From the IMG/VR virus record IMGVR_UViG_2721755587_000002: a stretch of DNA of 64,000 bases, one strand, 5' to 3'. Below, piece after piece: positions 32,291 to 37,859 of the stretch. The position numbers and the translations under genes were made by a program. The DNA comes from a virus. Taxonomy: Duplodnaviria; Caudoviricetes. The notes beneath the pieces were generated by a model. That model made no database searches, was not told where the DNA came from, and saw only the letters and a program-made list of their open reading frames with translations. The number at the start of each line of letters is the position of its first letter. Position 1 is the stretch's first letter.

Positions 32291-32839
32291 TCAGGCGACG
32301 CCATCGAGCCGGTGTTGGCGCGGCAGCAGGGCATCGAGATCCGATACCGGCAAGCCGAGCAGGCGGGAGACGTGGCGCAGGTTGGCGTACAGCTCCACCG
32401 CCACGGCGCGTGTCCTGATGCCGGGCAGTTCCTTCACCAGGGCGCCCCGGTAGCGGAGCGCGGCCAGTTGCTGCGCCACGGTCAAGGCGCCGACCTTGCG
32501 CGGCACCTGCCGGCCCTCCAGGACGTCCAGCACCCAGCGGCGGAAGTCCTTGGCGCGTTCCGTGCGGGCCAGCATGCCTAGGAGGTAGCAACCGCGCGGG
32601 CTGAAGATGCGGACCTGTTGGCGGCCGCCGGCGGTGTCGAGTTCGACCAGTCGGGTCATCTCCGCAGTGAATTCGTCGGCGTTGCGGTCGAACAGGTTCT
32701 GGATATCAGCCGACGGGTTTTTGTAGCCAAGGGCACTTGCAACCTGCAAGCCCCTTAGCCAGGGCACGTTGTGAATATCGACCACGTCGAACTCGATGTT
32801 TTCATAGGCAAGGACGATGGAATCGGCGTGGTTCTGCAT
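32291..32839 (-). CDS. BRO-N domain antirepressor
   Basis: VASALGY, RIFSPRG, AKDFRRWVLDVL. Confidence 0.8.
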   Translation of the reverse strand: MQNHADSIVLAYENIEFDVVDIHNVPWLRGLQVASALGYKNPSADIQNLFDRNADEFTAEMTRLVELDTAGGRQQVRIFSPRGCYLLGMLARTERAKDFRRWVLDVLEGRQVPRKVGALTVAQQLAALRYRGALVKELPGIRTRAVAVELYANLRHVSRLLGLPVSDLDALLPRQHRLDGVA

Positions 32840-32948
32840 GGCGTTCTCCAGGGCAAAGCCGCAAGGGCGGCGGATTTTGGACAAAAGGAGCCCCTCACGC
32901 CCCGAAGGGCATGAAACAGGCAATCAAAGGAAGGAAGAGGCTAGGCCA

Positions 32949-33197
32949 TCAGGTCGTCAGCAATTCGAGCTGGCGCTCGTCGCCGGCCGCAGGCCGTGCG
33001 CGGCCTAGCGGCAGGTATGCCTTCGGATTCGGTCGGATGCTGGGCGCGATGGTGTGCACAGGCGAAAGCAGCATCTTGCAGGTGTAGGCGCACTCCACGT
33101 TCGGGCACTGCACGTATAGCTCGCGGGAGAGCAGTGATACAGGGCGGCTGGTGCGGATATGCATCCGGGTGCCGCAGTGCGGGCAGTCCATTTTCAT
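32949..33197 (-). CDS. ogr: Ogr/Delta zinc-finger late activator
   Basis: CPHC...RTSR...YVQCPNVEC. Confidence 0.9.
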   Translation of the reverse strand: MKMDCPHCGTRMHIRTSRPVSLLSRELYVQCPNVECAYTCKMLLSPVHTIAPSIRPNPKAYLPLGRARPAAGDERQLELLTT

Positions 33198-33304
33198 ATG
33201 CAATCCCGGTGAGGCGGTGGCTTTGATGCATTGGGGCGAGGGACATCCACCAACGTAGAATCGCCAGTTGCAACGCTGTTCAATTCAACATCGGAGGAGC
33301 CCTC

Positions 33305-34176: not shown

Positions 34177-34416
34177 TCAATCTCCCTCAACGGACGTTGT
34201 TTGCTGATGCGCTGGGCCCTGAGTAGCCTTTGAGTTGCCAGCAGCCTGCATGCCCACCAGGATGAAAACCCTAGCCATGTTTGAGAGCGACCGGCCTTCT
34301 TCCAGCGCACGTGCCTCGAATTCACACTGCTCGGCGGGCAGCAAGCGGGTGTAGATCGGTTTGCTAGTCAGCACGCCGCGCGGAGAGCGAGACACAGGAA
34401 CTTTAGCTTTGAGCAT
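34177..34416 (-). CDS. Cro/Cox-position ribbon-helix-helix protein
   Basis: PIYTRL...EGRSLSNMAR; divergent from repressor. Confidence 0.65.
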   Translation of the reverse strand: MLKAKVPVSRSPRGVLTSKPIYTRLLPAEQCEFEARALEEGRSLSNMARVFILVGMQAAGNSKATQGPAHQQTTSVEGD

Positions 34417-34458
34417 GGCGGATATACTTGTGTAAGTTAGCGTTGCACAACAAATTAT

Positions 34459-34476
34459 ATGCACCGAACGGTGCAT
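34459..34476. promoter_or_regulatory. Palindromic operator in immunity switch
   Basis: ATGCACCG-AA-CGGTGCAT perfect IR between divergent regulators. Confidence 0.7.
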
Positions 34477-34490
34477 TTGACAACATCAAA

Positions 34491-34913
34491 ATGAACCAAT
34501 CGGTGACTATCGGGGGCCGGCTGGCCGAGGAGCGGAAGCGCAAAGGCTTGAATCAGGCCGCTTTCGCGGCCATTGGCGGGGTCTCAGTCAAGACTCAGGT
34601 TCTCTACGAGAAGGCCGAGCGTGTCCCGGACGCAAACTATCTGGCGGCAATAGCTGGGGCGGGCGTTGACGTTCTTTATGTTCTAACTGGCGCGAGCAGC
34701 TCGGCTGCTCTAGCGGCTGAGGAAGCGGCCGTCTTGGCGGGCTATCGTCTGCTCGATGCGCGCGGCCGAGCCGGCGTGCTCGCATTGATCGGTGGCATGC
34801 AGCCAGACAATGGAAACGCCATCGTCCGCGTGAAAGGCAACGTTGGCCAGTACGTCGAGGGCAACGTCACCGCGCCATTTACCATCGACATGAGTAAGAA
34901 GAAGCAACCCTGA
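34491..34913 (+). CDS. Prophage repressor (XRE HTH, no S24 peptidase domain)
   Basis: IGGRLAEER..GLNQ..FA..GGVS..TQ..YE...RVPD.NYL. Confidence 0.88.
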   Translation: MNQSVTIGGRLAEERKRKGLNQAAFAAIGGVSVKTQVLYEKAERVPDANYLAAIAGAGVDVLYVLTGASSSAALAAEEAAVLAGYRLLDARGRAGVLALIGGMQPDNGNAIVRVKGNVGQYVEGNVTAPFTIDMSKKKQP

Positions 34914-34930
34914 GTCATCGGGATGAACGA

Positions 34931-34960
34931 AAAACGGGCCTGCTAAATGCAGGCCCGTTT
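34931..34960. terminator. Strong hairpin after repressor
   Basis: AAACGGGCCTGC-TAAAT-GCAGGCCCGTTT. Confidence 0.7.
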
Positions 34961-35212
34961 CCGTTTGGGACCGCGCAATTAAGTGCCGCGCATATCTGAT
35001 TACAAATGATCGAAATCAGATCCAGACTTGTCCTAGAGCGTTTTGACTCTTTTTAGGATAGGTTGGGTGGGCCATGCTCCCTGTGGCGTTTCGCATGCGG
35101 TTGCTTGGAATTCCACGGGCAGCTCAGTGACGTGACTTTGCCGGTCACGGTAATCCAACACTTAAATTTATGCTGAACAAAGTACACACACCTGCCAGTC
35201 TCGCTCGCGAAC

Positions 35213-35947
35213 ATGTCGTCCTCTAAACCGTCGGTGAATATGAAGAATGGTGGTGTAGCCGTAGATGGCGACGTGGGGCAAGTGGTCGCCGGCAACGTGG
35301 TCCACGAAGGCGCCAATGCCAATAGCCACATGAGCAACGTCATCACGATTAGCACCGGCGAGCCATTGCCCCCGGTCAGGACGATTACGGAGTTGCAGCG
35401 CAAGCGCATCGCGGCCAAGGTGAAAGAGGTCATGCAGGTCGCAGGTGTCGAGCGTCAGCTTGATGTCTACTCGGTCGTTCTGAGCGATTTCGGTGTTGAG
35501 AAGATTCTCGACTTGCCTTGTGGCCAGTTCAAGAGCGTGATGTCGATGCTCGACAACTGGATCGTGGAAGCGAGAGGTGAGCCGCCTGGCTCTCTCTGCA
35601 GGCAGTCCGACGTCACAACGCCCGCGCATTCGGAGTGCACCGGTTGTGCAGCACTATCTGCTCGCCTTGACGGTACCCGCCAGACGCTTCGCTTCCTTAA
35701 AGGCACTGCCATAGTAGCGATGGGCTTAGCCGCCTATAGCCTATATGCCAACGCCACGTGGCCCGCAGCGGATGCAACGAACCCCTCGACTTCACTTTCA
35801 TGCCGCCACGATGGAAAAGAACACTCCATCGGCAGCATGGTACGCATGCCAGACAACAGCATCTATGAATGTGCTGCTCTAGCTACCAGCGGTGACATGG
35901 CGAGCTGGGTACCTGCCCGAGGCGTAGGCGGCAAGCGTCGCCTGTAG
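35213..35947 (+). CDS. Membrane protein: G[ND]VGQ motif + ORF6C-like domain + CxxC + TM + small periplasmic (DUF1496-like) domain
   Basis: ITELQRKRI...DFGV..I.DLP..QF...ML.NW; TM AIVAMGLAAYSLYA; C.HDGK.HS.G...YEC...W. Confidence 0.65.
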   Translation: MSSSKPSVNMKNGGVAVDGDVGQVVAGNVVHEGANANSHMSNVITISTGEPLPPVRTITELQRKRIAAKVKEVMQVAGVERQLDVYSVVLSDFGVEKILDLPCGQFKSVMSMLDNWIVEARGEPPGSLCRQSDVTTPAHSECTGCAALSARLDGTRQTLRFLKGTAIVAMGLAAYSLYANATWPAADATNPSTSLSCRHDGKEHSIGSMVRMPDNSIYECAALATSGDMASWVPARGVGGKRRL

Positions 35948-36051
35948 TAGTACCTGGCATTGCCAGTCGTCTACAACCTGAACGCGCACGCGCATCGGTG
36001 CCAACGAGCAACCTTGCTGCGCTGCCGTACCGAGACAAATTTTGGGATTCA

Positions 36052-36507
36052 ATGAAAATGATTGCACGGCTCGTCGCCCTGTGGAGGTCTCTCGTTCATG
36101 CAGCTACCCGGATCGAGGGAGATGTGCGCAATCGAACTCCCGGCAACTCGACAAGCCGCGTTCAGGCTGAGATTGAGTCTTTGCGCAAGCTCGCTTCTAA
36201 CGCGGCAAAGCCGACATACGCTGTCACCGATACGCAGTCTTCCGATTTCGAATCCATCCAAGTGGACATGGCCGCCGTGTCAGACGAGGTGAGGTTCGTA
36301 TATCGGGATCGACAGGGCGCGAAGTCAGCGCGGCATGTGAGTGTACAAAAGGCGGATGACGAGTACTTCGAGGGCTTCTGCCATCTTCGAAGGGACGTGC
36401 GAACCTTCCTCTTCGATAGCATTGTTGGCAAGGTCACCAGAATGAGCACCGGAGAACTGCTGACGGCAGGCAAGTGGCGCGATGAATTGCTTCGGGACGC
36501 CGACTGA
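36052..36507 (+). CDS. Stand-alone WYL-domain protein
   Basis: FVYRD..G..S.R.V...YFEGFCHLRRDVRTF.FD.I. Confidence 0.75.
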   Translation: MKMIARLVALWRSLVHAATRIEGDVRNRTPGNSTSRVQAEIESLRKLASNAAKPTYAVTDTQSSDFESIQVDMAAVSDEVRFVYRDRQGAKSARHVSVQKADDEYFEGFCHLRRDVRTFLFDSIVGKVTRMSTGELLTAGKWRDELLRDAD

Positions 36508-37052: not shown

Positions 37053-37859
37053 CTATTGCTGGACTGTCTCGCTAGGCAAGGATTCAGCGACGGAACCGGC
37101 TCCGCTCCATCCCAGGTGGCTCAGACTCACCGTGTAATGACCACCTTCCCCTTTTCTGAGAGCCAAAAGGTCGTACGTCTTCAACATGTCTAATAAGCCG
37201 GAATGACCGTAGCTTGTTGTTGAAAAACCAGGGTCTGTGCGTTTCAGGTATTGTCCTAGTGCGCTTAAAGCAACTTGGCCTTCGGATGTGCTACTCGCGA
37301 GCAACGCCACCGCGTCCATAATGAACCTCGGGCGCCGCTTGATTACTGGCTGCTGCTTTGGCTGCTCCGTTCTCAGTTGGGTTGGCTTGCCATTGGAAGG
37401 CTCAGCGCTTGCGGTGGATACTGATGACCATTCAAAGAATTGGTCGCTCGCATTGCGTAGCGCTTCTGGCGTCTTTGACTCGCCGACGATGCAGACCGTC
37501 GCCCCGCGCTCTCGAAGCTTCCGGCATAGATAGGCAAAATCGGAATCACTGGTAACAAGGCAGAACTTGTCAGCACGATGATCAAACATCGCTTCGAGAG
37601 CATCCAGCGCCAGCGCAATGTCGGCTGTATTTTTGCCGGCAGCGTATTGATATTGAAGGCATGGTGTGAAAGCTTGACGAACCAGTGCCTCCTGCCACGT
37701 CTTTGCGAGCGTGCTGTGGTTGCCATAGCCGCGACGAAGAACAACACGGCCAAACTGAGCTACGACTCGTAGTGCGTATTCCAGAATCTCCGGACTAGTG
37801 TTGTCGCAGTCAACCAGTACGGCAACGCGAGACTCAGCGGAAATTAGTGGTGCGCTCAT
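37053..37859 (-). CDS. NYN-domain RNase with OST-HTH/LOTUS domain
   Basis: VDCDN, K..ADIAL, TSDSDF; PGF...YG..L..L. Confidence 0.88.
   Translation of the reverse strand: MSAPLISAESRVAVLVDCDNTSPEILEYALRVVAQFGRVVLRRGYGNHSTLAKTWQEALVRQAFTPCLQYQYAAGKNTADIALALDALEAMFDHRADKFCLVTSDSDFAYLCRKLRERGATVCIVGESKTPEALRNASDQFFEWSSVSTASAEPSNGKPTQLRTEQPKQQPVIKRRPRFIMDAVALLASSTSEGQVALSALGQYLKRTDPGFSTTSYGHSGLLDMLKTYDLLALRKGEGGHYTVSLSHLGWSGAGSVAESLPSETVQQ

Follow-up and report, generated by a model that had tools for sequence, protein, structure and literature searches.

The immunity region described here lies in a 64,000-nucleotide stretch of viral DNA (IMG/VR record IMGVR_UViG_2721755587_000002, Caudoviricetes; hereafter the window) and forms the immunity switch of a P2-like prophage. 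The genome analysed is 8.42 Mb in size, consists of two replicons and has its closest protein relatives in Cupriavidus; the motif scan reported below spans all of it. Two neighbouring genes on the forward strand are considered, the first encoding the immunity repressor, with a helix-turn-helix (HTH) domain, and the second a membrane protein, termed the partner below. As listed in Table 1, the repressor ends in a short motif rich in glycine, asparagine, glutamine and valine, and a version of this motif stands near the beginning of the partner. A preliminary description of this DNA had read the pair as an amyloid- or RHIM-like signalling switch; its coordinates and sequences for the repressor tail and the partner head are exact.

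Table 1. Features of the immunity region, with positions in the window; features of the two motif-bearing genes are given first.
Feature	Positions	Strand	Remarks
Immunity repressor, 140 residues	34491–34913	+	XRE-type HTH at residues 7–66, helices 76–102, beta-motif tail; divergent from the Arc-like gene
Repressor tail motif VRVKGNVGQYVEGNVTAPFTIDM	34824–34892	+	Residues 112–134; core VRVKGNVGQYVEGNV at residues 112–126 (34824–34868)
Partner membrane protein, 244 residues from the first ATG	35213–35947	+	phrog_6521, 'membrane protein'
Partner head motif VAVDGDVGQVVAGNV...NVITIS	35255–35353	+	Residues 15–47; colinear with the repressor tail; core VAVDGDVGQVVAGNV at residues 15–29 (35255–35299)
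Three-helix ORF6C-like cytoplasmic domain	35378–35575	+	Residues 56–121; predicted local distance difference test (pLDDT) about 97 in the partner model (60–121)
CxxC (C142-T-G-C145)	35636–35647	+	Cytoplasmic side of the transmembrane helix; in many relatives, not all
Predicted transmembrane helix	35693–35752	+	About residues 161–180; from hydrophobicity; preceded by basic residues; model helix 143–182 covers CxxC and transmembrane segment
Small periplasmic beta domain	35795–35914	+	Invariant C197, C220 and W232; signature C-x3-G-x2-[YH]S-x-G
RNA hairpin, 12 bp, G+C-rich	34924–34967	+	Directly 3' of the repressor stop; −32.4 kcal/mol, z = −5.4, 0/200 shuffles
Sigma-70-like promoter TTGTCA-18-TATAAT, 11/12	34454–34483	−	Directed at the Arc-like gene; in the divergent switch region beside the repressor start
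Arc/CopG-like ribbon-helix-helix protein	34177–34476	−	phrog_3431 (Arc-like repressor), 3e-16; divergent from the repressor
Ogr/Delta-like zinc-finger gene	32949–33203	−	Early region
Bro-N protein	32291–32923	−	Early region; adjoins the Ogr/Delta-like gene
WYL protein	35998–36507	+	Between partner and gpD-like gene
NYN ribonuclease-like protein with OST-HTH/LOTUS	37053–37859	−	Between partner and gpD-like gene

The repressor matches only HTH_3/HTH_31 in Pfam, and these matches are weak. No S24 peptidase domain was found by Pfam in its 140 residues, in agreement with the preliminary description, and the C-terminal 40 residues are occupied by the beta tail; RecA-stimulated self-cleavage is therefore not expected. 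Like the S24 repressors of the LexA/lambda CI type, the protein is an immunity repressor that has its HTH at the N-terminus and is encoded at a divergent switch, but it lacks their autopeptidase domain. The tail consists of two xxVxGNVx octapeptide units, a third short strand and the basic end KKKQP, and matches the Gp5_C beta-helix repeat weakly (E = 0.14). Monomer modelling gives confident structure for the HTH and the two helices that follow it but leaves the tail unstructured (pLDDT about 50–58).

The resemblance between tail and head is specific to these two genes. A loose version of the motif pattern matches the six-frame open reading frames (ORFs) of the 8.42-Mb genome five times, and the only two convincing matches are those in the adjacent repressor and partner. 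Within the 15-residue core, which reads V-G-Q-[YV]-V at its centre in both copies, ten residues are identical between tail and head, six of them encoded by different codons. An origin of the copies at the RNA level or as a recombination linker was ruled out, since the copies stand in direct, not inverted, orientation and their DNA identity is only about 55%.

The partner joins its head to a membrane-anchored body. M10 is where its homologues begin, which makes the ATG at 35240 the probable start codon; in close homologues G19, D20, V21, G22, Q23, V25, N28 and V29 of the head are invariant. In an AlphaFold2 model built from 85 sequences the N-terminal 55 residues are disordered (pLDDT 55–63), and the head has no secondary structure. 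The order that had been proposed for the remainder (an ORF6C-like domain, CxxC, a transmembrane helix and a small cysteine-containing domain) is borne out by structural look-alikes, hydrophobicity and the model, and we infer that the N-terminus is cytoplasmic. The assignment of the three-helix domain to ORF6C comes mainly from predicted structure. Weak Pfam matches to ORF6C (PF10552) occur in 2 of 23 relatives (best E = 0.079) and none in the window's own protein, and Foldseek returned no PDB match at E ≤ 0.001. Among ESM Atlas look-alikes of residues 53–123 (35369–35581) are the ORF6C-bearing P22_AR_N, KilA-N and Rha proteins (TM-score by query about 0.8), along with Flk_N and the C-termini of ERF proteins. 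The VIA structure comparison gave middling Z scores, to be read only as leads, for the Sak C-terminal domain (7.9), NinB (7.1) and the Red beta C-terminal domain (6.3). Flk_N forms the cytoplasmic part of Flk, a tail-anchored flagellar regulator that also combines a membrane anchor with an ORF6C-like domain. The partner thus resembles the ORF6C antirepressors (KilA-N/ORF6C, P22_AR_N/ORF6C and Rha-type) in its three-helix domain, by predicted structure and weakly by Pfam; unlike them, it has no KilA-N, Bro-N or P22_AR_N head and appears to be co-transcribed with the repressor rather than placed under its control.

The periplasmic domain is modelled as five strands (residues 196–234); 10 of 23 relatives match DUF1496 (PF07383) weakly (best E = 0.003), and the window's own protein has no match. 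The partner family counts 348 representatives in a library of 1.84 billion proteins, and the alignments nearly always start within the first few residues. Two further proteins, P0245 (1354 residues) and P0277 (389 residues), match parts of the partner profile in 6–7 tandem stretches; P0277 looks like a secreted protein, an array of repeats similar to the initial helices of the three-helix domain.

The pairing of tail and head recurs widely among related phages. The comparison covered 110 loci that surround homologues of the repressor; 80 of them came from IMG/VR viral contigs and 30 from genomes belonging to the same family. Single-linkage clustering of the motifs yielded 15 classes in which tail and head change in parallel. 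Examples, with the tail given before the head, are GEVSQVVHGG and GDVSQLVSGN, MVFHGSVGDVKNISG and FEFHGEVKKVING, QQNFHSGVNIGQQ and EQNFHSDIGQV, HHGDIGQNIYGNI and FSGDVGQNVFGNI, GHGAVQIG and GAGAVQVG, and QQFNGTVGQVV and QQFNDEVEQVA; in a further pair GDIGQNIYGNI is matched by GDVGQNVFGNI. To avoid selection bias, the tail of each class representative was scored against the ORFs of all representative loci without exception. The summed own-locus score was 721, compared with 547 ± 27 after permutation, and none of 100,000 class-level permutations reached it; a simpler test using head windows agrees. Where tail and head share a residue, only 38% of the codons are identical, and the aligned stretches have a nucleotide identity of about 0.4–0.6. 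Since so few codons agree, selection at the protein level is indicated, as the preliminary description had supposed from the codon differences in the window, and recent gene conversion or DNA duplication is unlikely.

Co-occurrence of the two proteins was assessed with a hidden Markov model (HMM) of the partner body from which the first 62 alignment columns had been removed, so that it is free of the motif. It matches 66 of the 110 loci, and the repressors of these 66 without exception have a beta-type tail rich in G, N and Q; all partner heads that were read carry the matching motif at residues 1–20. By the same HMM, the partner body is found in none of the roughly 20 loci whose repressor homologues end in helical, acidic tails. 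The joint occurrence and co-variation that the preliminary description had named as a check are therefore both present. Matching heads also stand on other membrane proteins, which may be tail-anchored (L085, L088, L103), multi-pass (L109) or anchored close to the N-terminus (L084), and the smallest partners, of about 120 residues, comprise only the motif, a transmembrane helix and the small periplasmic domain. At L075 the tail is paired with a cysteine-rich protein of 72 residues in which no hydrophobic helix stands out clearly (best hydropathy over 19 residues 0.77). Two genomes (G155 and G166) each contain two different classes, which makes a common host factor recognising both tags unlikely. 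Strict orthogonality of classes within polylysogens was considered and ruled out, as genome G121 holds two copies of one class.

A second line of evidence comes from relatives in which the two halves form a single chain. Residues 6–80 of the repressor match positions 7–81 of the 267 positions of phrog_17822 (E = 1e-12), and a genome search agrees; the partner itself has no phrog_17822 match at E ≤ 0.01. At locus L113, positions 94–264 of the same family are represented by a separate ORF of 201 residues directly after the HTH repressor, that is, by a soluble partner. This pair uses a different matched motif, AAGRD, with the tail reading ..HAAGRDMAI.. and the ORF head ..YAAGRDINS... The 201-residue ORF in turn finds the 'CI-like repressor' of Pseudomonas phage Gregale (Casadabanvirus, OR683403.1), a protein of 268 residues encoded beside a Ner-like gene. 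Residues 14–121 of the partner profile align to residues 94–205 of the Gregale repressor with the motif included (hhalign 92.5%, E = 4.8e-7; BLASTP E = 0.006). By these profile alignments, a fused CI-like repressor contains, as its C-terminal half, a homologue of the partner's cytoplasmic half.

The Gregale protein thus shares its HTH with the repressor, and its G/N-rich beta stretch and helical domain with the partner; it differs in being one polypeptide with one motif copy and neither transmembrane helix nor periplasmic domain. In the window, the corresponding chain appears to be split at the motif, with a copy kept by both halves and a membrane anchor on the second. Similarly, P0258 combines a repressor-type HTH and helices, a partner-type helical domain and a beta tail in a single chain; it lies in a P2-like context with a 269-residue gene 8 nucleotides downstream. 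A search with the repressor for homologues longer than 245 residues found none, which is weak evidence; fused forms turned up by other routes. The helical domain can thus stand before or after the motif junction or be fused across the junction, and this distribution provides Rosetta-stone evidence for one functional unit. Together, the homology to the fused repressor C-terminus and the P0258 chain fit a split repressor that is rejoined through matched beta motifs.

These observations lead us to a proposal that we hold at roughly even odds, namely that the prophage repressor is split between the products of the two genes, tethered to the membrane and joined through the matched beta motifs of its halves. 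The first half would contribute the DNA-binding HTH and a tail of about 25 residues, rich in G, N, Q and V and unstructured on its own; the second would contribute the matching head, followed by the ORF6C-like domain, the CxxC, one transmembrane helix and a small periplasmic domain of disulfide type. Tail and head would fold together into a shared in-register beta structure, and their being alike, rather than merely complementary, fits parallel in-register stacking. This joint would unite the repressor with its missing C-terminal domain at the inner membrane. The partner usually lies in the repressor operon, and the complex would accordingly be present in the lysogen, where the repressor may be tethered or sequestered. 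The cysteine-paired periplasmic domain is a possible input, through which the condition of the envelope could govern how much repressor is available. The beta structure itself could be a finite intertwined unit or amyloid-like. Direct binding, membrane tethering and any effect on signalling or induction are steps that we infer. The paired change of tail and head across related phages points to a putative physical connection, not described before, of the lysogeny switch with the envelope.

The gene order around the pair is that of a P2-like immunity region. Across the divergent switch from the repressor, the Arc/CopG-like protein is the probable lytic regulator of Cro/Cox type. Upstream lie genes for a CII-like DNA-binding protein, the Ogr/Delta-type zinc finger, the Bro-N protein and a large primase-like protein, and 3' of the partner are the WYL protein, the NYN/OST-HTH protein and a gpD-like tail gene (recognised as gpD by eye from its translation). 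The WYL and NYN genes occupy the moron slot of P2 and may be defence or regulatory cargo. The Bro-N protein is a candidate antirepressor and could offer this prophage, whose repressor is not of the S24 type, another way to be induced. In several loci (L011, L007, L019) a zinc-ribbon membrane protein (..CKECKKEVS..CPHCG..) is encoded just 3' of the repressor, and in L011 it stands between repressor and partner. The order of repressor (ORF35), membrane protein (ORF33) and gpD is the same in Ralstonia phage RSA1 (AB276040.1; locus L112). In the published description of phage RsoM1USA the repressor is given only as an XRE regulator, and a transposase lies near the XRE gene.

Several observations weigh against a split repressor, or limit how far it extends. 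Repressor and partner are usually close (median gap about 58 nucleotides; 19 of 34 pairs at most 100 nucleotides apart; several separated by 2 nucleotides or in overlapping frames). In the window, however, they are separated by 299 nucleotides and a strong hairpin, which is a possible partial terminator between them, although a simple terminator scan did not call it. About 250 nucleotides of non-coding DNA lie between this hairpin and the partner, whereas most relatives have only 2–100 nucleotides between the genes. In RSA1 an insertion sequence transposase (ORF34) separates ORF35 from the motif-matched ORF33 (L112, 1139–2359), so tight co-expression is not universal. Many partners lack the ORF6C-like domain, and the idea of a missing C-terminal domain does not apply to all classes. 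Moreover, 11 loci, mostly from Ralstonia, carry a type D tail (KRSQIIVGGSNNVQVG, with a RHIM-like VQVG core) and have no detectable partner (L007, L009, L019, L022, L023, L025, L034, L039, L086, L089 and L092); neither a matching head nor a partner body was found within 1.5–3 kb of them, indicating that the tail can exist alone. The motif classes also have a common core, such that some tails score equally against the head of another class and the own locus is not always first, and kinship among the sequences means that the permutation figures overstate the significance.

Other explanations of the paired motif can be set against the same evidence. An origin by chance, or by recent DNA duplication or gene conversion, is exceedingly improbable: a short motif of low complexity might arise in this way, but the presence of only two good matches in 8.4 Mb, the recurrence in 66 of 110 loci and the low codon identity at identical residues all contradict it. 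It is also unlikely that the motif acts in each protein separately, as an element of self-association or stability (homo-oligomerisation, or a protease or chaperone tag), with the likeness inherited from a fused ancestor and no heterotypic binding. Such a role would suit the partner-less type D tails, the existence of a fused ancestor or relative, and the octapeptide periodicity and Gp5_C-like repeat of the tail; drift after the split, however, would erase class-specific matches, yet these are kept in about 15 classes, and the several classes within one host genome argue against a common host factor. We regard as rather unlikely a third possibility, in which the partner is not a regulator of the repressor at all but a membrane effector expressed in the lysogen, acting in superinfection exclusion or abortive infection and either gated by the repressor tail or reporting the state of the repressor. 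PHROGs places the partner family in the moron/host takeover category, the gene sits in the moron slot between repressor and gpD beside the WYL and NYN genes, and known amyloid-signalling pairs terminate in membrane-acting effectors. Less easily reconciled with an effector are the single transmembrane helix, the absence of any pore-forming or enzymatic domain from the partner by Pfam and in the model, the homology of its cytoplasmic half to a repressor C-terminal domain, and the minimal partners, which leave room for little beyond the motif and the anchor with its periplasmic domain.

The explanation closest to the preliminary description is an amyloid or prion-like switch, in which an envelope signal would cause the head to template a cross-beta structure that aggregates and inactivates the repressor tails, giving RecA-independent induction. 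We consider this, too, unlikely. The layout on which that description relied does stand: motifs of about 20–25 residues, rich in G, N and Q, occupy the C-terminus of one protein and the N-terminus of its neighbour, as in HET-S/NWD2, the Bell/NLR pairs with BASS motifs, and Bab/Agp. The two copies are similar and not complementary, as expected for in-register stacking, both are disordered in the monomer models, and a true VQ[IV]G core occurs in some classes (L075, L084 and the type D tails). Kinship with RHIM or BASS, on the other hand, is not borne out. The core in the window is VGQxV and not the RHIM tetrad [IV]Q[IV]G, neither protein has a Bell or NLR domain, and Pfam gave no RHIM, HET-s or PP match for the whole proteins at E ≤ 0.1 or for the isolated tail and head at E ≤ 10. 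In addition, a templating pair constitutively co-expressed with the master repressor would be risky, and the fused forms, in which one motif lies between two folded domains, favour a finite structural joint over a fibril. The broader claim that a widespread class of switches in temperate phages, P2-like ones here, is wired to the envelope through a self-templating, amyloid-like motif common to the repressor and a single-pass sensor in the membrane, such that an envelope or periplasmic redox signal frees or sequesters the repressor and induces the prophage without RecA, is in our judgement likewise unlikely.

Amyloid-signalling pairs have been described in fungi (HET-S/NWD2) and in bacteria, where Bell/NLR pairs carry the motifs BASS1–10 (bioRxiv 10.1101/2020.01.06.895854) and the Bab/Agp pair of E. 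coli carries BASS11 (bioRxiv 10.1101/2024.11.07.622273). The phage pair shares with them the adjacency of the genes, the placing of a short G/N/Q-rich motif at the upstream C-terminus and the downstream N-terminus, the similarity of the motif within a pair together with its difference between pairs, and its disorder in isolation. It differs in its members, a phage immunity repressor and a membrane protein with a single transmembrane pass, between which Pfam finds neither an effector of the Bell/HeLo type nor an NLR/TPR sensor, and in having fused single-chain forms and no Pfam amyloid-motif match. Full-text literature searches returned no paper describing a matched motif between a repressor and a membrane protein.

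A further comparison, by analogy only, is with ToxR, TcpP and CadC, in which a DNA-binding domain is joined through one transmembrane helix to a periplasmic sensor, so that envelope signals reach the promoter directly. Each of these regulators is a single chain with a winged-helix domain and shares no homology with the pair described here, for which we propose a non-covalent beta-motif joint between two proteins and a prophage switch as the target.

P2-like prophages and many Mu-like prophages have no SOS-cleavable repressor, and to our knowledge their natural inducers are largely unknown. The pair is found in isolated and workable phages, including Ralstonia phages RSA1 and RsoM1USA and P2-like phages of Burkholderia, and its motif classes offer natural material for specificity swaps. 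If the proposed split repressor is correct, a co-evolving peptide tag and a protein with a periplasmic domain would provide a concrete route from the envelope to the lysogeny switch, and pairing through matched motifs of the amyloid type would reach from immune cell-death systems to transcriptional control.

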